The notes under the pieces: model-generated
The model's input: only the letters and a program-made list of their open reading frames with translations
Databases searched by the model: none
What the model was told of the DNA's origin: nothing
Source: Nymphaea colorata
Taxonomy: Eukaryota
Direction: 5' to 3'
Assembly: GCF_008831285.2 (NCBI RefSeq)
Contig: NC_045138.2
Coordinates: forward strand, 20,584,001-20,648,000
DNA length: 64,000 nt
Position numbers and translations under genes: made by a program
Part shown: positions 14,003 through 63,300 of the stretch, piece by piece
Layout of the letters: the number at the start of each line of letters is the position of its first letter
How positions within the stretch are numbered: position 1 is the stretch's first letter

Positions 14003-14166
14003 ATTTTTATCCATCATAAAAAACATATTAGAGTTTTTAACGGGGGCAATTTCTTTAGAGAAAGATCACCACTGCTCCTCAACTTTCTTTCTTCTACGAT
14101 TTTTCCATTCCCTTTATTTATCATCCTTTTTTTTACTCCATTTTCCTTAATTTCCATGGCATTGAA

Positions 14167-14264
<98 letters not shown>

Positions 14265-14755
14265 GTTTAATGAAACCCTTTTTGCTACGTCGTTCAATCC
14301 TATATTTGAGTAGAGGCAAAAGAAGAGCTCCCATGCACTATGAAAGCGAAGAAAGTAGGGAAATTTCTATTTTTCGTCTTACCTTTTACTTTTATAATTT
14401 CAAAAAATGAAGCACTGTTTATTATTCCCTAAAAGAGACAGTTTCCGTAAAGCTGTTAAAAAAGGGCCAACGTTGACTTTTTTTTTGTTAAAAAAAATAC
14501 AAACACGTAGGTTCGCTTTTCAAGTTTACAAAAATTCACTTCATGCCCTTATATGTTTCTCGCCTTTTTAGACAATATTGTGTACACTGCTGTTCGTGCA
14601 GATGGAGAAATTCATGTTAACCATTTCAAATTCAGATTTGATCAGTGACGTGTTTACTTAATTAGTTAGTTCCAAAAGGAACCGAGGTGCGTTTCTATCT
14701 TTATTTTTTCAAGAAAGACAAAACAAATCAACCTGGAATTCACTCTTCCCGACTC
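14003..14755. repeat. Left copy of a long direct duplication flanking the PIF/Harbinger element
   Basis: Near-identical to 21447-22164. The differences I could see are (CA)/(AT) microsatellite length and a 1-nt indel (CTACGTCGTTC vs CTACGTCTTC). Confidence 0.95.
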
Positions 14756-15297
14756 GGGCCCGTTTGATGGGCGGGTGAAATTTAACACGGTAAGTTTACC
14801 AAGGTAAATTTTTCTAGAAAAATTTAGTGGATGAAATTTTACCCTCTTCCAAAACGAGACCCTGTTTGATTGTCGGGTGAAATTTAACGTGGTAAATTTA
14901 ACCCAGTTTGATGAACATGAAGAATTTAACGTGGTAAATTTAACCCTGTTTGATGCACATGGAAAATTTAACATGGAAAATGTTGTTTTTTTTTTTTCCT
15001 TCCCAATTCCACTTTGGAAGGAGCAGAACCCATATATTTCTTCATCAATCATCCCAAAACAAATCACCATACAACCAGTTCATTAAAAGACACGGCCATT
15101 CACACGATATATATAACAAAAAGCAAAAAAAAATATCTAGCAACACATTACAACAGAAAACACCTTCTTAACTTAATTTATAACTGCAAAAGTTATATAT
15201 TTGTTCCCAAAAACATTAAACAGAAATTGTCCACAAAAGTAACATGAGTACGAATCCACAAAAGGGTGTACTTTCTACTAAGAAGAAAAAACAAAGT

Positions 15298-15624
15298 TCA
15301 ATGAGTACATATCCAACAAAGAAAACATGTAATCACAAAACAAGTAATCCAACATTTCTGGCTGCACTTTCGTTCTTCAAACTTCGTGTCTTCTATATCT
15401 TGCTTTGCGATGACATCTTCAATGAGTGGAGACCTGCTTGCTTGCACACCATACTTGTTCTGGAGATACTCATGCATGTGATTTTCTGCTACTTGTAATG
15501 AATTAAACGATCTGAAAACGGCACCCTTGTACCGATAGACTAATGGTTGGCACCGCTCCCAGCTGTCATATATGCCTCGCTCACGTCCTTCGAAAACCAC
15601 ATAGTACTTTTGGTGGGGCATCAT
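15298..15624 (-). CDS. 108-aa protein with an RNase H1 N-terminal hybrid-binding (Cauli_VI / L9-like) domain and a hydrophobic Cys-rich C-terminal tail; third ORF of the Harbinger element
   Basis: KYYVVFEGRERGIYDSWERCQPLVYRYKGAVFRSFNSLQVAENHM matches the HBD consensus (Y-V-x-x-GR-x-G-[IV]-Y-x-x-W-x-x-C-x-x-x-V...F-x-S-x-x-x-A). ORF is open from ATG 15624 to the stop at 15298. Confidence 0.8.
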   Translation of the reverse strand: MMPHQKYYVVFEGRERGIYDSWERCQPLVYRYKGAVFRSFNSLQVAENHMHEYLQNKYGVQASRSPLIEDVIAKQDIEDTKFEERKCSQKCWITCFVITCFLCWICTH

Positions 15625-17044
15625 TTTCGTTGTCCTGTTGAAAAGAAAACAAATGTCAGACAATCAAACTGAAGAAGTAGTCAACATTTATAAACAAACT
15701 TACTAGTCAATTGATAATCTGTAAACATTTGAGATGATATAGCTGCTCTCAAAGCATTGTTGCTTCCTCGCTGATGTGTTTGGCTTGCAATTTCAGGTTC
15801 GCTTAAGACGAAGTTATCAATCGAAGGTGCATCTTCATCATCAAATTGCTCGGCATTTGGATTGTGTTCAATTATGAAGTTGTGTAGTACACATGTAGCA
15901 AGAACAATTTGAGCTTGTTTTTGGAAAGGATACTGAACTTGCATTTTCAATATTGGAAAACGACCTTTCAACATGCCGAAAGTTCTTTCTACTGTATTTC
16001 GAAGTGATGAATGCCTATGGTTGAATAATTCTTCTTCTGTTCTAGGTGAACGTGCTCCCCGAGTGTTAAACTCAGACATATGATAACGATGTCCTCGATA
16101 AGGTGTAAGCAAACCAACAATGTTTGGATACCCCCCATCAGCCAGATAAAATTTGCCTACAATTGAACACAATTTATTTATACATTGATACATGCTTCTT
16201 AATAAAAGACTGAACTGGTTGGTGGAACTACGTACCTTCTGGGACAACAAATGGGTCTGTTTCATGATCTAGTGCATTGTACAATACTCTTGAGTCTGTT
16301 GCACTTCCTTCCCATCCAGCCAAAACGTAGTGGAATCTAGTATCTAGGCCGACTACAGCCATGACGTTTTGAGAAATGAAACCTTTTCTATTGCGAAACC
16401 TTGCTTGATCTGAAAAAGGAACCCAAGCCGGTATATGTGTGCCATCGATTGCTCCTAAACAATTCTATATGACAAGGCAACTAGTTAGTCATGTTGTAGT
16501 TTGTCATGTTGTATGTGTCATGTTGAGTTCAAGATGATGAAATTACCTCAAAATATGGAAAGAATCGTTTAGAATGTCGAATATGTGCTGGCATCATCTC
16601 ATCATTGGGCCGGCGAACGTAATCCTTACCCAGTATACATATCGCTCGTAGCACTAGGCTGACATATTTACTTATTGTTTGTCCGGAATGTTGAAACGTA
16701 TTTTGAACAGCACGATTCCGTTTATTATGTCCAATTGTCAAAAGCAATATAGCTACTTGTTCTTCTACAGTAATGTCACGAGCATCCTCCAACAAATTTC
16801 TATTCCTTAGAATGTTGCACAATCTCATATATGTATGTCCTTCCATACGGAGTAAGTCCAAACAATTTCTAGGATGACCACGAAGCATTAGTTGGACAAA
16901 AGATGTACCAGCATCTCGAAATGGATGAACAATCCTCCTAGACGATGGTCGGTCTTTCAACCAAAAGAAGATGAAGACAAAAACCATTCGAATGATGAAA
17001 AGCACTCGTTCATCGTCGTCATCGAACATGTCAAAATCAATCAT
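15621..17044 (-). CDS. PIF/Harbinger (HARBI1-like) DDE transposase; exons 17044-16547, 16464-16236, 16156-15704, 15634-15621 (unspliced alternative stop at 15681)
   Basis: GT-AG introns join in frame. Motifs: HTH region VEEQVAILLLTIGHN...FQHSGQTIS, NCLGAIDGTHI, GWEGSATDSRV, FYLADGGY, FNHRHSSLRNTVERTFGMLKGRF, LATCVLHNF. No internal stops found. Confidence 0.93.
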
Positions 17045-17220
17045 TTCGACTAAACTGCATATACATGTAAGGTACTTGAATAACAAAATCAATCATTTCA
17101 ACTAAACTGCATATACATGTAAGGTACTTGAATAACAAAATCAATCATTTCGACTAAACTGCATATACATGTAAGGTACTTGAATAACAAAATCAATCAT
17201 TTCGACTAACCTGCAAATAC
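17033..17220. repeat. 52-bp tandem repeat (three full copies plus a partial) spanning the transposase splice acceptor and start
   Basis: AAAATCAATCATTTCGACTAAACTGCATATACATGTAAGGTACTTGAATAAC starts at 17033, 17085 and 17137, with a partial copy at 17189. Confidence 0.95.
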
Positions 17221-17338
17221 ATTGCAGCAATTTCTCACTACATGGATGTTCATGGAATAAAAAGAAAAACACACAACAAATTGAACTTGTGCTAAATGAA
17301 ACATACAAATAATTAAACTAACAGACATGGAAACTTAC

Positions 17339-18295
17339 CTACAAATCACCAAGTCTACGCGACAACCATGTCAGCCGGTCTTCAGGTGGAACGTTGAGAA
17401 AGATCATGGAATTGGTTCCCTCTCCTAATAGGTCCAGACTCATCAGTCTCGTATGACTATCTAGTAGCCCTGTGTCCACCATCTCTTGTAAAATTTCACA
17501 ACATTTGACATATTGAAACCCTCTAGAAGTATGTGTGAGGGAATCCACATTTTTAGCTATACCGTTCAACAAATTGTAATACATGTCATCGTTGGTTGAC
17601 TTGTTCCGTTTTGACCTACGTGTACTTGTATTGGTTGTCGGATTCTCAGTTGTAGGAGTTGTAGGTAGTGGCGACTGTGTAAATGACTGTTCACTATCAG
17701 GCTGCATGTACGAAGGTGATGTCTGAGATGCAGGTGTACATGGGAGTGGTTCAGTCTCAGCTTCAAGCACGTTGTTTAATGTGACTGCGTTTTGCCCAGT
17801 TGCATGAGATTCGCCATATACCTCGGCGAACTCATCATAGTATCTCCAGACTTTTGGACCTCTGTACTTTTTCCTATTTGGATATTTCTGAAAAAATTCA
17901 TGTGTTCAAATATTGCAGAAGTAAATACATGTGAGACAAAACCTAACAATATTAATTTTATAATTTACCTCAATGTAGTCGTTCCATACTTGGGGGTCGA
18001 CCTCAATGCATTTGTTAATTGGGTCGTAGCCAAACCCACTTGTGTTCAACATTTCCTTCATCACTGTCAAGTTGGGTTTGGAATACTTCAATTTGTTTTT
18101 TATTTTGTCTTTCGTGAATTCTAGACCGAATCTATCCATCATTGCTTTTTCAATAGCTGTGTATGCTTTGGGCTTCAAACCTCCACCGGATTTCATGCCA
18201 GGGATGCGTGACTGCTCCACAAGAAGCTGGACTAAGTAATCCATTTGTGGTTCAGTCCACGTAAGATTTTCTCTTGAAGGACCGCTGTCTTCCAT
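17339..18295 (-). CDS. Myb/SANT-like DNA-binding protein (PIF ORF1, L10-interacting MYB-like); exons 18295-17969 and 17887-17339
   Basis: WTEPQMDYLVQLLVEQ...KAYTAIEKAMMDRFGLEFTKDKIKNKLK...SGFGYDP...WNDYIE|KYPNRKKYRGPKVWRYYDEFAEVYGESHATG, followed by an S/T/P-rich linker and a C-terminal ...IFLNVPPEDRLTWL. Phase-0 GT-AG intron. Confidence 0.92.
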
Positions 18296-21200
18296 GTTAA
18301 CGTTTTGTATAATAATTCTTCACAGTAACAGTAATATAAATCTAGCATGAAGAACATACGAGAAACAACGACAAAGGAGCATCAGAAACCATAAAAGCAT
18401 AAGTAGACCTTTCATACACAGAAAAGAAAGGACAAAAGACGTCAGCAATAAACTGCACTCTAAATCCAATGAAAGTGTTTTTGTGAGAACGATGAGCTAA
18501 TGCTATATGTTATGTTCCATCCATAGAAAAGATCATTACATGTTTTTCTTTCGTCAAAAACATATAAGAGAACAATAACTGAGAATAGAACAATAAGAGA
18601 TGGTGACACAGTTTAAATATAAATGTGACCATAGTAAATCTAAAATCTGAACAAAACAAAGCTGTGAAAATAGAAAACACATCTAAATTCCAATAAAATA
18701 TATAACACATCTAAATGTCAATAAAAAAATATATAACACATCTAAATGTCAAATAAAATATATAAGGAACAACGATTAGATGCCACCAACTATAAGTTAA
18801 GCTAAAGCACTTTCATGTCTCCAAGGAGGGGGGGGGGGGCATGCAGGTGAAGGTGAAGCTAGACGAGGCTGAAAAGCATGTTCATATCTGTATTCTCAAA
18901 TTCTAATTGCTAGTGAATCCATGTGAATGAAAAATGTCCTTCCTTTAAGTAGATTTCAGTCAAATTTCCTCAAAATGATTCAAATATCATGGCTGTTTCT
19001 ACTATTGTTGGGCCCATAAATGTCTCTTATACTTGTTCTTTTGGTTAACCTTCCTTTCGAGAAATGAAGTTTCTATCATCCAGTAATTACCATTCATGTT
19101 CTTATTTACTCACCCTGTTACAGGGACAGGAATTGGACCCAGTGACTGCATTAACTGTGTAATGCTATTTGATAGCAGGTGCTTTCTTATTTTTGTTAAT
19201 ACGCACACACACACATGCATACGGAATTGTGTATCAAATGGATTTAGTTCCAATTGGACCCAGTGACTGCATTAACTGAGTAATGCTATTTGATAGCAGG
19301 TGCTTCCAATGACAAAGTATATTGATACGATTTTCATTTTCAAAAACAAGGAGCCAACATAAAATATTTATGTTTTTTAGTTTATAAGTCATATTAAAGA
19401 AGTTTTTGTTCTCCCTTTTTTGGCTTATAAAATGTCAACTGAACAAGAAGGACCTTCCGTTAATTATTAAACTTCTAGACGTGGACAAGTTTCAACTATA
19501 AGAGCTTTTGTGTAAACTCATATTTCACCAAACTGTCTAAAATAGACAAGTCTTCAGCTTATTTAATAAATTTAACTTCTGTCTTCAAGAAATGAAGATT
19601 GGGAAAAAGTGTATAAAGCAGGAATTGCTCCAAAGTCTCTAAGGTGAATTGACCAACAAAATGTACCCATTTTAGAACAGTATGTTGTTAACTGTCTGCT
19701 CATTGGGTAGACTAAAAAAACAATCTTTTCGTAACTTTACATCATAACTTTACAGGTAAAATAGATCTACTCTTAATTTCAAGAAATATTCAAACCCCAT
19801 TCGACTCAAAAGGCTAGGCAGAGTGCCTGGTGACTTGGTGTGGATTGGCTTACAGGTTACTGTGAACAGGACGCTGAGGTCCCACGTTTTTCACATCAAG
19901 CTGTTTGAGTGAGAGCACTTGCTCACAGCCAAATCTTGTGGGTCCTGCAGCCACATGGAACTTGCACCAATTTGTCAAGGCCAATTATATGGCTGGAACC
20001 AGGACCATGAGCTTCCTCTCCCAGACCAGTCCAACAGAACCTACAACTTCATAGCAGGTGTGGATACATTCACAACCACTTAACTATGAAAAGAAAAGCA
20101 TTTGGTTTTGGTAGCCCACAACTTCACCAAATCATTGATGACTAAACAAAGGCGTCAACAGCATAAGAAATTGAACACAGAGAGAGAGAGCAACTTCACC
20201 AAATAATTGAATGCCTAAACAAATGCATCAGCAACAAAAGAAATATGATATTGGATGTAGCAAAGACGAGAGAAAGAGGGAGCAGAGCAGAAGAAGAACA
20301 GTTTATGCTCCTTTTGTCTTTGCATGGAACTGGGAACCACAAGAGAGTCATCCTATTTGACTTTGTAAAACAGGTAAAGGACACACCAAACTCACGGGCG
20401 GCCATTTTTGAAAGAAATATTTGAGCATCTTCCCTTTCTGCGTCTCTTGACAGTCCCAGATAGACAACCCATTATAAGTTATAAGGCACTGTGGTACTCT
20501 TAATGTTGGTCTTTCACAAAAGAACTTGAGAAGGCAGGACAGGAACTCCAGGAACAGAGATCGATTACTCATTTGTCAGATAGGTTCCTGTACAGGCAAC
20601 TTGCGTCGCTGAAATCTAAGCCCCGTTTCTATCTAAGCACCCAAAGGCCGTAATAAGGGATAACATAATGAAACTCAGAGAAAAGAACGGCGATACTGAT
20701 AACGAGATAAGGTTAAGGCAACCATTTCTATGCCTCCAGGGGCTAAGAGAAAAGAACGGCGATACTGTAGGCGATCATCTGCTTTATCAAGATAAAATTC
20801 ATGCGAAAGAAACAGCACAGAGAAAGGGGGGAAATGTGGGCAGCTAGCGACGGGGAGAGAGAGAGAGAGAGAGTGACAGAGAGATATACCGGCAGAAAAA
20901 TGTCCGACGCCGGCCGCTTGAGGGTGTTGCGACGGTCGACTGTGAAACCCTGACAGTGAGAAGGAACGAGGGAGGAAAAAAATTGGGGCATTAGTCTACG
21001 CGAAAAAAATGGGGGCATTTGAGGGTGCTACCCAGCACAGAGAAAGGGGGGAAATCTGGTGAAGAAAGGTAAGAAATGTGGGCAGCTAGCGACAGAGAGA
21101 GAGAAAGAGAGAGAGAGAGCGACAGAGAGATATACCGGCAGAAAAACCTCCGACGCCGGCCGCTTGAGGGTCTTGCGACGATCGACGGTGAGACCTGGCA

Positions 21201-21333
21201 GTGAGAAGGCACGAGGGAGGAGGAGTTGCGGAGGGAGGTCGAGCGTTGCGGAGGGACTTCGAGCGCTGCGGAGGGAGGTCGAGCGTTGCGGAGGGACTTC
21301 GAGCGCGGCAGCAGAAAAGCATTGATGGGTATA

Positions 21334-21365
21334 TTTCGAGCGGGTGAAATTTCACCCGCTCGAAA
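21334..21365. repeat. Perfect 32-bp palindrome in the right subterminal region of the Harbinger element
   Basis: TTTCGAGCGGGTGAAA|TTTCACCCGCTCGAAA; each arm contains the inner TIR motif GCGGGTGAAA. Confidence 0.95.
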
Positions 21366-21446
21366 GTCCGAGCTCGGTGAAATTTCACCCGCCCGTACAA
21401 ATTTTTCCTCCCCCGCCCACTTTCACCTGCCCATCAAACGGGGGCA

Positions 21447-21610
21447 ATTTTTATCCATCATAAAAAACATATTAGAGTTTTTAACGGGGGCAATTTCTTT
21501 AGAGAAAGATCACCACTGCTCCTCAACTTTCTTTCTTCTACGATTTTTCCATTCCCTTTATTTATCATCCTTTTTTTTACTCCATTTTCCTTAATTTCCA
21601 TGGCATTGAA

Positions 21611-21674
<64 letters not shown>

Positions 21675-22164
21675 GTTTAATGAAACCCTTTTTGCTACGT
21701 CTTCAATCCTATATTTGAGTAGAGGCAAAAGAAGAGCTCCCATGCACTATGAAAGCGAAGAAAGTAGGGAAATTTCTATTTTTCGTCTTACCTTTTACTT
21801 TTATAATTTCAAAAAATGAAGCACTGTTTATTATTCCCTAAAAGAGACAGTTTCCGTAAAGCTGTTAAAAAAGGGCCAACGTTGACTTTTTTTTTGTTAA
21901 AAAAAATACAAACACGTAGGTTCGCTTTTCAAGTTTACAAAAATTCACTTCATGCCCTTATATGTTTCTCGCCTTTTTAGACAATATTGTGTACACTGCT
22001 GTTCGTGCAGATGGAGAAATTCATGTTAACCATTTCAAATTCAGATTTGATCAGTGACGTGTTTACTTAATTAGTTAGTTCCAAAAGGAACCGAGGTGCG
22101 TTTCTATCTTTATTTTTTCAAGAAAGACAAAACAAATCAACCTGGAATTCACTCTTCCCGACTC
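21447..22164. repeat. Right copy of the long direct duplication flanking the PIF/Harbinger element
   Basis: Matches 14003-14755 from ATTTTTATCCATC to CTTCCCGACTC. Confidence 0.95.
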
Positions 22165-31850: not shown

Positions 31851-34800
31851 TGTAAGATCATTTGGTGGGCCGACATATGTCTATGAGGAATTTCAGACAT
31901 TATAGATGTCTTAAAATAAATATCCGCTTAAGTGATTGCATTTTGGGATATTATGTCATTTTAGATGATATGGGGTAATTTTGAAATGTATAGATACCAG
32001 TACGCAATTATGGACTCTTTGATGGGCGGAATTCGTAATTGTCCTCATTATAAAATGGTAGTGGTCCCTAGGGTCGTGCAATGGTTGCCTGAAACGTTGG
32101 TTTCTAGGGTTTTCCTCTTTCCCATCTGAGAGAGACCTCAAGCGCGCCGCACGTACCCTGGAAGACTCTACTTCGATCTTCCCGTGCACCAGTTCAGATG
32201 GATTCAGGTATACTTTCGCTTCAGTTTAAGGTTTTGTTTATTTCAATGATTTAGCATGAGCATGATCCTGTTTTAGGGTATATACGTTTGGTTTTGTATA
32301 TGCATGAAGGGGAGAAATCCCTACAATTGGTATTAGAGCCTATGCTCATTGTTGAATCGTTGATCTTTTGGATGATTTTTTTTCGGGCTTCCGCTACAGT
32401 CGCCTGAGACACAGGGAAGTATGGCGAAGGGACGGCCAAGCAACCGTCGCCGGAAGGCAAACAGCCGTTTGCCGGCCGTCCTGGCGCGACCCGCCGCCGG
32501 CCCGTCGGTGGTTCCCCTGCGTCTGTCGCAGCCACTCAAGAGGAAGAAAAGGGAAAAGGGGCAGATTTGAAATCAAGGGGAAACCGGCCAGAATCGGCCT
32601 GTTTCCGGCGGGCGTCGGCCCGCCATCGTGGCGGCCGACGTCCGGCGACGCTGGCGGCACCCGCCGGCGGCCACCCACGGTGTTGGGTGGCCTGCCGGTG
32701 GAGCTTCACCGCCCGCCTGCCGTTCGGCAGGCGAGCGGTGGAGGCAACGCCCGCGATCGCTCACGCGGGCAGGCGGACCGGGTCGGGTCTTGCAGACTCG
32801 ATCCGGATCCATCAGATTTAAAAAAAAAATATTCATTTTGCCGCCCGCCCGCGCCTCTGTATCCATGCGGTTTAAGTTTTTTTGAGAAACGGTTCATCCT
32901 TGTCAAACCGGTTCTGAAAAGAGTCAAACGGGTTCATTCGGTTACAGAACGATTCAACTCGATTCAGAACCGGTTCAGACCTTTTAGGGACCGGTTCGGA
33001 CCTTTTGGGGGCCGATTCGGATCATTTTGGGTCCGGCTCATTAAGTTTAAATCCGATTCAGACAGTTTCGAACCTTTTGGAGACCGGTTCATTCAGTTTT
33101 GGAGCCGATTCGGTCCATTTTCGGACCGGTTCAGTTATTTTTCAGTCGATTCAGTTGATTTTCAAACTGATTCAGGGCTTTTCAGACCGGTTTATTCAGT
33201 TTTAGAACCGATTTTAGCCATTTATTAACCGATTCAGTGGGTTTTTTTGAACCGATACGGTCTATTTTTTGACCGGTTCGTCCAATTTTTAGACCGGTTC
33301 AGCCCTATTTAGGGGCACGTGGGTGTTCTAGTTGTGGTTTAAGAACGATAAGGGCCACTTTAAGGCCGATTTAGTGGTTCTTGACCCACTTAAGTACAAT
33401 TATGGTATCGGTTTATAAAATTTTGGACTCTTTTGGGCCCATATCATTGAACCATTTGGTTTTGAATTCAATATAAGACAATTTTGTATGTGTCACATCA
33501 TTGAATCATTTGGTTTTGGATTTAATGTAGAGCAAATTTGTATGTAAATTTTAATTCATGTATCATGTTTTGCATGTTTTAAATTTGTGGGTGTACTTTA
33601 AATGAATGTTTGGATTATGAATTTGATCTTTGGCCATGTCTGTTGTTTAAAATGAGTAAGTTTGTATTTTATGTCGCCAAAATGACCTCTGTTGTACGAA
33701 TTTGCCTGTTTTGAACATTAGATGATAGTATACTTGATCCATGCGGGCAATGATCAACCCAAAGGAGGATTGTTGTTTGGTCAGGTTTAAGTATACAGGG
33801 CAATGAATATGTGATAATTTTTCATGTTTTCATGTAAATAGCGAGTCAATCCAAAGATAGGCTCGTTGTTTGACAGGGTTAATTATCTATATTCATTGTT
33901 GACCAAAAATACCACTTGCAGTTAGTATTTCAATCCCAAGATTGGATATTAACGTTGCACCGATACCTTGTGATGGGATTTAGGCCATTGTACCTTGTGA
34001 TGGGATTTAGGCCATTGTATTTAAATTCATTTATATTTGCTATTTCATTTTTGTACATGTTTTGATTGTGAGCATGTTTGGTATTTTTGTTCTTTGTACA
34101 GTGAGTTCTGCTTTCATGATATCTGTAAATTTGAGTACTGTTCCTCAGTTAAATGGTTCGAATTTTAAGGACTGGAAAGAAACTGTTATGATTGTTCTAG
34201 GTTATATGGATTTAGACCTTGCATTTAGGGAGTTATGCCTACCTCATCCAACAGATCAAAGTTCCCATGAAGATAAGCGGTACTTTGAACGGTGGGAACG
34301 CTCAAACCGCATGTGTCTAATGATCATGAAGAGATCAATCCTAGAAAATTTTAAGAGCTCTATTATTGAAAAGGCTAGTGCCAAGGCGTTCCTTAAAGAG
34401 ATTAAAAAACGTTTTGCTAAAAATGAAAAGGCTGAAACAAGCACTCTTTTGAGTAAACTTGTGACGCTGAAGTATAAAAGTAAGGGGAACATACGGATGC
34501 ACATTATGGAAATGTCTCATCTTGCTTCAAAATTACAGGGGCTAGGTCTGTGGTTATCTGAAGACTTTATAGTGCATATGGTTCTTCTTTCTCTTCCACC
34601 ACAGTTTGGACAGTTTAAAGTTAGTTATAACTGTCAGAATGAGAAATGAGCTCTTAATGAGCTCATTTTGCACTGTGTGGAAGAAGATGAGAGATTGAAG
34701 CATGATAGGATAGAAAGTGCTCACTTGGCTACTACGCCTGAAAGTAAGAAAAAGAATGCTATTAAGGAAGTTGCAGTTGATCATGCATCCATCAAGAAAC

Positions 34801-38059: not shown

Positions 38060-38980
38060 ATGGCGTCCGAGAAGAAAGCCATGAAGATCATCACCGGAGC
38101 GGACGACTTCGGTTGCAAGCTCAAGGATGCCGTTGTCGCCCATCTCCGTTCCAAAGGCATCGACGTCGAGGACCTCGGCACCGGCAAGTATTACTCCGTT
38201 GGCGAGGAGATCGGCCGCCGCGTCAGCCTCGCCCACTCCTCCGGCAACGACGGCACGGAGACCCGCGGCATCCTCGCTTGTGGCACTGGCGTCGGCGTCT
38301 CCATCTTTGCCAACAAGTTCCCTGGCGTCTATGCCGCCACCTGCGGCACCATCGATGAGGCCGTCAACTGCCGCTCCATCAATGACTCCAACGTGCTTTC
38401 CCTCAGCGGAATGTTCACTCCGCCGGAGCTGGCCCAGGGGATCGTCGACGCCTGGCTCGATACTCCATTCAAGTCTCCCTGCCGGGCGAGCGGTGGCGTC
38501 GCCTGGCCGGGCGAGATCGACACCTTTCTGAGTAACTCCCTGTCCGAGATGTCGAAGATCCCTGGCGCGAGCTCCGCTGGAGGCCCAGGGGGCTCCTGCG
38601 CCATCTGCTCGTTGAGGGAAGGTCGAGAGTTTGAACCCGTGGCGATCATGCCCGGTGGGAGCATGAAGATTGTCCGGCAGAGCCCCACAGCTGCCATTGT
38701 GAGGTTCGCGGCCGGCAGCCTCGAGCCGGCCCACCACCATACGTTCGGCCACGACCTCGTGGTATTGAGCGGCAGGAAGAAGGTGTGGAACCTGAGCAAG
38801 AAGGAGAGCTACGAGCTGGGGCCTGGAGATTACCTCTACACCCCGGCGCCGGATGTTCACAGGGTCCAATACTTCACTGACACGGAGTTCTTCATCAGGT
38901 GGGATGGCGATTGGGATATCTTCATTGATGAAGATCTTGCCGCCGCTGCCGCCGCCACTAAGGGGAGCTCAGATCCGTAG
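38060..38980 (+). CDS. DRT102: DNA damage-repair/toleration protein DRT102 (RpiB/LacAB domain + C-terminal cupin), intronless, 306 aa
   Basis: MKIITGADDFGCKLKD...RGILACGTGVGVSIFANKFPGVYAA...CRSINDSNVLSLSG (RpiB fold), then PAHHHTFGHDLVV...GDYLYTPAPDVHRV (cupin). GC-rich uninterrupted ORF. Confidence 0.93.
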   Translation: MASEKKAMKIITGADDFGCKLKDAVVAHLRSKGIDVEDLGTGKYYSVGEEIGRRVSLAHSSGNDGTETRGILACGTGVGVSIFANKFPGVYAATCGTIDEAVNCRSINDSNVLSLSGMFTPPELAQGIVDAWLDTPFKSPCRASGGVAWPGEIDTFLSNSLSEMSKIPGASSAGGPGGSCAICSLREGREFEPVAIMPGGSMKIVRQSPTAAIVRFAAGSLEPAHHHTFGHDLVVLSGRKKVWNLSKKESYELGPGDYLYTPAPDVHRVQYFTDTEFFIRWDGDWDIFIDEDLAAAAAATKGSSDP

Positions 38981-60365: not shown

Positions 60366-63300
60366 TGTTGAAATAAGAATGTTTATGTTTCTAGGTGGTT
60401 CTTTGTAATATTAAAGAGTTATAAGATTTCTTTAATATTTCCTTTATTTTAGATTGATGTAATATGTAAATCTTCTTTCTACCCTAATCTCTTTATAATA
60501 GAGATTAGGGTTAGTGAATGGAACGTGTTCTTTTCTTCTCAACTCTCACGTCTTCAGCCCTCTCTCTCTCTCTCCACGTTTCAAGGCTGCAACATGGTAT
60601 CAGAATGGGACGTGACTGGCGACGCGACTTGAACAGCCGGTGATAGGCTGCAGACGTCGGTGAATCTGGCGACATGACGTGAACAGCCGGCGACCCTCCT
60701 TCTCCTTCTCAGGCTATCTCTTCCACCGTCTTGTTCTCCTTCCTCTTCTTCCGTCTCTTCCTTCTTCTCTTCTCATTTGTTCTAGTTGACTGATTTCCAG
60801 CAACGGAACTAGGTGGAGGAGTCTATTCACGCTAGGAGGTATGCGTGAATAGACTCCAGTCGTGGAGACTCTTATGGTTTGATGTGGTCTATGATCAAGG
60901 CAGCCAAGTGGAGGACTGCTCTTTATGATTTTTTGTGGCAGTTTACGTTGAATACATTTATCTTTTGTCATTATTCATGATGTGTGAAAATTAATGTGTG
61001 GTACAGCTGCGTTAGATACATAAATAGACAAGTTGTTGGTTGGAGCAGATTATTGTGGGCTTGCTGTTAGCAGTTTTTTTTAGATTGCTGTTCTTTTTGG
61101 CCGTGGGTTGCTGTCAACAGTTGGACAGCGGTTTGCTTGCTCTTATGCATCTAACCTGGCTGTGTGGGAAGTTTGGTCTTGCTGATCAGTCTCTTTTTTC
61201 AATATATATATATATATATATATATATTCTCTTGCCTGTGGTGGTTGATCTCTTGTGGATAGATTTGCAATGGCTGAAAATCTCAGGACTGATTTTTCTC
61301 ATGAGGTTAAAAGTGGAGGAAATCCATTCTCTTATGGTTCTACGGTAAAGTTAGATGGATCTAACTATGAGATTTGGTCTCATGTGTTTATAATGTCAGT
61401 GATTGGACATCAGAAGGAGCATGTTATAGAAGAAAATGAGTCTGTCGAAAAAAGTGGAAAATATGGTTCATGGAAGGGAGATAATAATATTGTCATGTCG
61501 TGGATCATGAATAGTTTACAACCACAAATCGCATCAACTATTGCATACTGTACCTCGGCCAAACAAATGTGGGATTTCTTGGAACAAACTTACTCAAATG
61601 ACAAGAATGTTAGCAAGATATTGCAGGTGGAGGAGGAATTACTTAATCTGCAACAGGGTGATCAAAGTCTTGCTCAGTACTTCGCTTCCCTCAAGTCCAT
61701 CTATGAACAACTTAAAGCATTACGTCCCCCATGTCCAACATGTCATAAAACTCATGGTGAACAGTCTATGGTTGCGAAGTTTTTACAGGGTCTCGCCCCT
61801 GACTATGCTGTAGCAAAGGCTCAGATGTTGACTGGAGCAGAAATCCCTGACCAAGCCGAAGCTTACAACAAACTTAGTCGTCTTGTTGTGACCCTTTCTC
61901 AGCCCTCTAGTGACTTACAGGCTTCTGCCTTGGTAGCCTCAGGAGGTTGTGGACGCGGTTCATTCAGGGGGAGAGGCATTGGTCGTGGGTCAGGAGGAGG
62001 TAGGGGGAGATTTCAGTGCACCTATTGTGGTAAAATAGGACATTTAGAAGACAGATGTTGGGATAAACATGGTCGTCCTTCCGTTGCATCCCTAAGAAGA
62101 AATGTTGCATCTAAGCAGGGCAAGAATTCTTTACCGTCTCCTATTGGGTCTGCTCAGGCAGCTTCATCAGTTGTAGATGGGTCTTTATCTTCTTCTCACC
62201 CTAAGACAGTGACAGTGAGTATCAACAAGTCTGAGTATGAGGACTTCCTAGCACTCAGATCTTCCCAGCCGTCGGCCTCTACAGTCATGATAGACAGTGC
62301 TACGTCCGTTGATAGTGTCCCACATGATACAGGTACTACCTGGACCGAAGCATCGAGACACTTTTGTAGCAAACCTTCTATGTTTATTGTGCTACACATG
62401 TTGCCTCAGGCACGTCATGTGAAACTTGCAGATGGTAGATGGTCACCTATTCTGGGTTATGGTGATATCAAGATTTCTCAGTCTATGACTATTCCTAATG
62501 TGTTATATGCTCCTAAGTTCCCAACAAATTTGTTATCAGTTGGACAATTGATTAATGACTTACACTGTCGTGTAACATTTGACTATGGTTTATGTTCATT
62601 TCAGGACTTGCAAACTGGGAAGACGATTGGTGGAGGCTATGAGAAAGGAGGCATCTACTTCCTGTCGGATCCAATGGGTATTGCAGCATCATCGATCACC
62701 TCACCGTCCTCCTCTTTCCAGTGGCATCTCAGATTTGGTCATCCATCTGTCTCCAAGCTCCGTCACCTTCTTCCTCAGCTTTCAATACCAGAGTCATTCC
62801 AGTGTGAAGCCTATCAACTTGGCAAACACATCCGTAGCAGTTATTCATCCGTCCAGTTGTGGACTATTTGATCTTCTTCATGTTGATGTGTGGGGTCCTA
62901 GCAGAGTTGCTAGTAGGTCAAGATTTCGGTATTTTCTTGTCATTGTTGATGATTATTCTCGAGTCACTTGGGTCTTCCTTTTGAAGGAAAGGTCTAAAGT
63001 AGTATGTATTCTCAAAAATCTTGTTATTGAAATAAAGACCCAGTTTGGTATTCTTGTTAAAAACATTCGCACTGATAACGCCCTTGAGTTCAAAGCCTCA
63101 ACCTTAATGAAGTTTTACTCCGATAATGGCATTTCTCCTCAGTTTACTTGTCCTCATACCTCCCAACAAAATGGAGTAGCTGAACGTAAACATCGCCAAC
63201 TCTTAAATGTGGCTCGTTCCCTAATGCTTCATACCAAGTTACCTGCATCTTTTTGGGGAGATGTCATCCTCACGGCCTGTTACTTAACCAACCGTTTACC

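Follow-up and report, generated by a model that had tools for sequence, protein, structure and literature searches.

Structure of the Element and Its Surroundings

The window, that is, the whole stretch of 64,000 nucleotides of Nymphaea colorata DNA analysed here (contig NC_045138.2, positions 20,584,001 to 20,648,000), carries on its minus strand an element with genes for a Myb protein, a transposase and a small protein with a hybrid-binding domain (HBD, PF01693), in this order (Table 1).

Table 1: Features of the three-gene element, in window coordinates and in the order of the minus strand.
Feature	Position	Strand	Remarks
Three-gene element	21445 to 14756	minus	bounded by 25-bp TIRs
Right (5′) TIR	21421..21445	minus	outer end damaged, 22/25 letters match left TIR
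Donor-like sites, duplicated	21136 and 20890 (20890..21136)	minus	a CT-rich tract follows each; possible ends of a leader exon
Myb exon 1	17969..18295	minus	PF12776, E 4e-16
Myb exon 2	17339..17887	minus	ends TAG
Donor D2 (GTAAGT)	17333..17338	minus	0 nt after Myb stop; seen joined to 15634
D2-to-last-exon intron	15635..17338	minus	GT..AG, 1,704 nt, contains transposase
52-bp tandem repeat	17032..17222	minus	TRF: period 52, 3.7 copies, 97%
Transposase exons 1-3	17044-16547, 16464-16236, 16156-15704	minus	DDE_Tnp_4, wholly inside D2 intron
Last-exon start	15621..15634	minus	element's strongest acceptor, 13/14 pyrimidines; shared by Myb and transposase mRNAs
Third ORF (HBD)	15298..15624	minus	108 aa; PF01693 at residues 6-48, E 4e-17; hydrophobic Cys-rich tail
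Left (3′) TIR	14756..14780	minus	intact GGGCCC end

A DDE_Tnp_4-type transposase, a Myb/SANT ORF and short TIRs, three hallmarks of PIF/Harbinger transposons, are all present. The transposase matches PF13359 on its exons 2 and 3 and contains the acidic-triad motifs. Neither CACTA ends nor matches to Transposase_21 or Transposase_24 were found in the element; its ends and Pfam matches are PIF-type. It is not a CACTA (En/Spm) member and at most works like En/Spm.

Two of the mismatches between the TIRs fall at the outer, damaged end of the right one, where the sequence is similar to a word located 60 nt into the flank. A 3-bp target-site duplication (TAA/TTA) is absent at the element flanks. Instead, a 718-bp direct repeat (21447-22164 and 14003-14755) abuts both TIRs exactly, the two units differing by 2 mismatches, one 1-nt indel and the length of a (TA)n tract. 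A giant target duplication, a template switch or an assembly artefact might account for this repeat; the copy is filed as rearranged rather than as a canonical insertion. In relatives, among the loose ends listed, those of three contigs from RNA run X20 show an intact element end followed by TAA (agreement 0.62).

The closest relatives come from Nymphaea thermarum, N. colorata and Victoria, named as in their sources. The gene model P0141 contains Myb, DDE and HBD parts in the identical order, and all seven proteins matching the third ORF are from Nymphaea, open and alike down to 61% identity; the three-gene layout is therefore a family trait. Elsewhere in the window, on the plus strand, lie an intronless GC-rich ORF (38060-38980, 306 aa) with RpiB/LacAB and cupin domains, presumably a plant DRT102 gene, and Copia-type gag/pol ORFs (61270-62871 and 34074-34649).

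The Myb Stop and the Repeat-Filled Spacer

Spliced together, the two Myb exons encode an open frame of 292 amino acids; the relative P0018 ends at the same residue. The sequence-only reading had noticed that the Myb stop codon TAG (17341-17339) is directly followed on the minus strand by GTAAGT, and this is confirmed in the sequence. Given the base composition of the element, GTAAGT is expected behind one given stop with a chance of ~3e-4 and a bare GT with a chance of 0.06. Donor D2 scores 8/9 against the 9-letter donor consensus; among the 6,576 GT sites that the two strands of the window contain, 24 score equally and none better. The AG of the donor consensus is provided by the Myb stop codon itself. 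Translation as a Myb-HBD fusion, as modelled in P0022 and P0149, was rejected because the donor lies behind the stop, at which 10 of 18 Myb tails end. Leaky scanning through Myb to a downstream ORF was likewise rejected, as the Myb ORF contains 24 ATGs. A protein of 616 aa from Victoria cruziana (P0008) contains three tandem Myb domains like that of the element with a single C-terminal tail and is possibly a domesticated derivative.

Between the Myb stop and the transposase ATG (17044), where a gap of ~295 bp had been described, we measured 294 nt. The further description of a spacer filled with repeats carrying TGCAG acceptors, the proximal of which (exon start 17054) leaves 10 nt before the transposase ATG, proved accurate: 178 of the 294 nt belong to the 52-bp repeat, and four TGCAG acceptors are present, with exon starts at 17210, 17158, 17106 and 17054. 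The transposase ATG sits within the last repeat copy, so that all four acceptors are followed by an ATG at a distance of 10 nt; those behind the three upstream acceptors open dead ORFs of 19, 16 and 19 codons. Each transposase acceptor is preceded by 8 pyrimidines in 14 positions, compared to 13 at the last-exon acceptor. None of the TATA-like or AATAAA-like words searched occurs in the spacer. The expansion of the repeat has likely created three decoy units of acceptor plus ATG, which would lower transposase output further in the window's copy. Near the right end, a 160-bp duplication (20821-20976 and 21063-21221, 88%) copies a donor-like site and its CT-rich tract and represents the second duplicated splice signal in this copy.

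Transposase and Third ORF

The three transposase exons joined to the last exon (four exons) encode an open frame of 397 aa, 79% identical to P0036 from end to end, and the start in relatives is the equivalent of 17044. Once the last intron is removed, the transposase stop (15623-15621) overlaps the HBD start at 15624, in agreement with the stop-start arrangement that had been read from the sequence. This HBD ATG lies exactly 10 nt on from acceptor 15634. The transposase exon opens at the same distance from its ATG, and the two exons share 7 letters around it. At the last transposase donor (15700-15704) a second GT follows 4 nt further on, and a shift to it yields, in the window's copy, an open in-frame transposase-HBD fusion of 506 aa. 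Among 15 proteins that carry the tail motif of the transposase, 5 are fusions of this kind, all of them N. thermarum models, and PF01693 is present in one of 102 transposase matches.

The best PDB matches of the third ORF product are yeast RNase H1 (1QHK, E 2e-9) and human RNase H1 (3BSU, E 5e-4). Its tail (15301-15354) contains a Cys-rich hydrophobic 17-mer with a mean hydropathy of 2.1, which is kept in P0002, P0005, P0035 and P0138 and is possibly a membrane anchor. Viral contigs gave five matches, confined to residues 5-52, one of them to a 219-aa ORF on a 129-kb contig. Atlas leads were all below 0.9 and pointed to small plant PF01693 proteins. Five of the 40 RNA differences listed (of 964) fall into the HBD ORF: two are silent, one changes stop to stop (18/18 reads) and two are conservative, a small and selected sample which would fit a coding ORF.

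Gene Models and Splice Joints in Relatives

RefSeq transposase models of N. colorata from three loci (P0036/P0134, P0137 and P0139) end as predicted by splicing of the last intron to 15634. RefSeq isoforms rest on RNA alignments. At one locus, isoform X2 starts at the transposase ATG and isoform X1 (P0134) carries an N-terminal extension of 23 residues. For the first 19 of these, the best match among 127,882 six-frame window positions is at 18027 (score 44, next 28), which corresponds to the end of Myb exon 1 read in a shifted frame, and all 19 are codon-compatible with a Nymphaea Myb (19/19). The 10 nt ahead of the transposase ATG encode the residues that link the extension to the transposase. 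From this match it follows that in the model the donor of Myb exon 1 is spliced to the transposase acceptor lying 10 nt ahead of the ATG; Myb exon 2 may have been lost from the DNA of this locus. In P0039, a RefSeq model from a distant subfamily, the end of Myb continues into the transposase.

RNA reads from four of 24 listed runs (X1, X5, X20, and X21) were aligned at 80% likeness. They stem from relatives, with 6 of 638 X21 reads at least 99% alike; the joint counts are very small, combine diverged copies and are distorted by the likeness cut, and a ranking of the genes by read depth was rejected. Out of 46 joints 15 were listed, four of which have GT..AG ends. The Myb intron (17969 donor D1 to 17887) is represented by 12 reads in X21 and by contigs in X1 and X5. 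For introns 1 and 2 of the transposase there are two X21 reads each, in addition to contigs. In addition, D2 was found joined to the HBD acceptor: the joint 17339 to 15634, with both ends exactly on the predicted splice sites, was detected in six X21 reads from six starts and in one X5 contig of depth 22, hence in two organisms. It was not found in the rows listed for X1 and X20, and it may stem from a processed or deleted genomic copy.

Joints to the repeat acceptors, including that from the Myb stop to 17054, were not detected among the 15 of 46 joints listed. A leader-exon joint was absent from the same 15 as well; relatives hardly align over 18559-20374. A second X5 contig (record 21, depth 19) departs from the window sequence at 17339 with 29 letters beyond, and X5 record 17 stops at 15703, matching the prediction from the first GT of the last transposase donor. 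Two further joints, 14852-21212 and 14781-21377, connect the two ends of the element and represent transcribed or assembled short derivatives, which point to a MITE family in relatives.

A Probable Alternatively Spliced Unit

Taken together, we consider it probable that this PIF/Harbinger-type element is one alternatively spliced unit, in which D2 removes the transposase as an intron and rarer transposase mRNAs are made via a weak acceptor. In the main message, as seen in the RNA of relatives, Myb exon 1 would be spliced to exon 2 and the Myb stop to the last exon, and the Myb mRNA would share the single 3′ end of the element. The intron that begins 0 nt after the stop would take the three further introns with it. 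In plants, an intron located more than 50 nt behind a stop is described as a trigger of nonsense-mediated decay (NMD) (PMC3711448). The donor may abut the Myb stop because no intron then lies more than 50 nt behind it, so that the Myb mRNA would escape intron-based NMD. According to the gene models, the transposase acceptor would be reached from a Myb donor, and the transposase would stop a few codons into the same last exon. The weak transposase acceptor, set against the strong one of the last exon, would keep transposase low relative to Myb. In the Myb mRNA, the HBD ORF would begin 10 nt after the Myb stop, and in the transposase mRNA it would overlap the transposase stop; its translation by low-level reinitiation is probable and the least secure step of the model. 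Ribosomes might gain access to the transposase and HBD starts by inefficient reinitiation or on leader-exon isoforms.

This differs in part from the sequence-only reading, which had proposed that all three genes are read from a single spliced mRNA. The use of D2 in RNA of relatives, and reads and a RefSeq isoform according to which the three genes act as one transcription unit, uphold that proposal. The continuous message finds no such support: the one partner seen for D2 among the 15 of 46 joints listed is the HBD acceptor, which removes the transposase; moreover, leaky scanning is excluded. In a tricistronic mRNA, three introns would remain beyond the 50-nt limit downstream of the Myb stop, together with 1,527 nt as far as the HBD stop, and such an mRNA is predicted to be an NMD target. 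We regard it as quite unlikely that one tricistronic mRNA is the working message, with the HBD protein aiding reinitiation like the transactivator TAV of caulimoviruses. In its favour, the junction from the Myb stop to 17054 can be built in the window's copy with a gap of 10 nt, the transposase acceptor is used in P0134, the HBD ORF shows the stop-start overlap, P0039 runs through from Myb into the transposase, and X5 record 21 has a partner beyond 17339; in addition, the miniTAV region (P6 residues 111-242) is described as overlapping an RNase H domain (PMC3836500). However, the required junction is missing among the 15 of 46 joints listed, in which the competing skip is present, and the TURBS word TGGGA does not occur in the last 120 nt of either the Myb or the transposase ORF. 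The TAV-like helper role suggested for the third protein finds little support: of its 108 residues the 43-residue HBD alone is shared with the domain class of TAV, the best PDB matches are the RNase H1 proteins of yeast and human, and TAV binds L24 and initiation factors through sites described in another domain (PMC3836500). It seems very doubtful that HBD, as a counterpart of the RNase H-like core of miniTAV, is a transposon-built translation helper at both stops, itself reinitiated, which feeds back to let ribosomes reach the transposase behind Myb on a minor tricistronic isoform, the default splice meanwhile deleting the transposase; if true, this would be a splice-plus-reinitiation switch for transposition, undescribed in the literature searched.

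An unlikely though not negligible explanation is that a leader exon from the right end is spliced to any of the three acceptors, yielding three monocistronic mRNAs without reinitiation and with the HBD ORF as a silent passenger in 3′ UTRs. The identical 10-nt spacing and shared letters of the transposase and HBD exons, the donor-like sites at 21136 and 20890 and isoform X2, which begins at the transposase ATG, agree with such a leader, and it would resolve the translation problem posed by the 24 Myb ATGs; yet no joint of this type is among the 15 of 46 listed, relatives hardly aligning over 18559-20374, and isoform X1 carries Myb exon 1. The same isoform speaks against two ordinary genes for Myb and transposase with separate promoters, in which case the skip would be read-through splicing noise from decayed copies and HBD a captured fragment without a role. 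This is highly improbable in our view. The reads are indeed few and from diverged copies, PIF elements are reported to capture host sequence (PMC2528002), and ORF order varies among the PIFs described in PMC2213677 and in our distant loci, where 10 of 80 have a same-strand Myb, always downstream. Nevertheless, the skip joint occurs in two organisms and reaches, in X21, half as many reads as the constitutive Myb intron; the HBD ORF, moreover, is open and alike in seven Nymphaea proteins down to 61% identity, with a stop-to-stop change. Least probable of all appears the production of HBD mainly as a C-terminal transposase fusion via the second GT, perhaps steering insertion to RNA-DNA hybrids. 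The shift does open the 506-aa product in the window's copy, and one third of the proteins with the tail motif (5/15, all N. thermarum models) are fused, but the second donor is much weaker, the first GT is the one used in the RefSeq models from three loci and predicts the end of X5 record 17 at 15703, and the Myb skip mRNA cannot yield the fusion.

Distribution and Relation to Known Systems

A first metagenome scan gave no match. The second yielded 80 distant PIF loci, 20 of which comprise 900 nt upstream and 49 of which comprise 500 nt downstream of the transposase; within these limits a same-strand Myb was found in 10 and never upstream. No HBD was detected at these loci by local profile (0/80), nor was PF01693 in the 93 flanking ORFs searched of 226 candidates (0/93). 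At ten loci (L002, L009, L026, L027, L045, L048, L049, L055, L065, and L067) the Myb ORF follows the transposase at a short distance and on the same strand; these are candidates for shared transcripts with reverse gene order.

Among plant PIF/Harbinger elements, those of lineage M (DcMaster and MtMaster), as described in PMC2213677, resemble the element in their intron-bearing DDE_Tnp_4 transposase, the tandem upstream Myb/SANT ORF and short GC-rich TIRs, a likeness that is not a tree-based lineage assignment. They differ from it in the third ORF with PF01693 and the splice removing the transposase, both features of the Nymphaea element as compared to that description. No PIF/Harbinger element with a PF01693 ORF or a transposase-skipping splice was found in the literature searched, outside which lay most subscription papers and Repbase; the accessible part of PMC13668399 contains nothing on splicing. 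The domesticated PIF genes APLG1 and APM1 of Anopheles, annotated as dicistronic (PMC9710019), likewise place a transposase and its DNA-binding partner on one transcript. They are, in contrast, an insect pair of two genes, for which neither a transposase-skipping splice nor a third ORF is described in the accessible text of that source.

With RNase H1 the third protein has the hybrid-binding domain in common, while it lacks the catalytic RNase H domain and adds a hydrophobic tail. The caulimovirus P6/TAV protein is described as having 520 aa, with a minimal transactivator at residues 111-242 and the sites for L24 and initiation factors elsewhere (PMC3836500, PMC5902531). It shares the 43-residue domain with the 108-aa protein, a comparison made by domain map alone. 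PF01693 has one described precedent in a DNA transposon, the capE gene of the fungal (Pleurotus) helitron HELPO1.3 (PMC4289320); unlike capE as presented there, the PF01693 ORF of the element belongs to the family as a whole in Nymphaea and is integrated into its splicing. The conserved HBD gene offers a test case for the use of R-loops or double-stranded RNA by a DNA transposon, and its position at the stops of both mRNAs makes it a natural, virus-free test case for reinitiation after long plant ORFs.

The papers searched contain little on how PIF/Harbinger elements balance the amounts of their two proteins, and the Nymphaea family would give a concrete answer. One alternatively spliced unit would also explain why fusion models of Myb, transposase and “Ribonuclease H” are numerous in the annotations of Nymphaea. 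A parallel in logic is maize En/Spm, a CACTA element, for which TnpA and TnpD are described as products of alternatively spliced transcripts of one gene (PMC13547354, PMC8195511). Like En/Spm, the element would be one unit with an abundant accessory DNA-binding protein and a rare transposase, set by a splicing choice. It is unlike En/Spm, as characterized in these sources, in its superfamily and proteins, in the alternative intron beginning at the accessory stop and in the shared exon that holds a separate third ORF. A transposase housed in an optional intron whose donor directly follows the Myb stop would represent the logic of En/Spm, reached independently in another superfamily.
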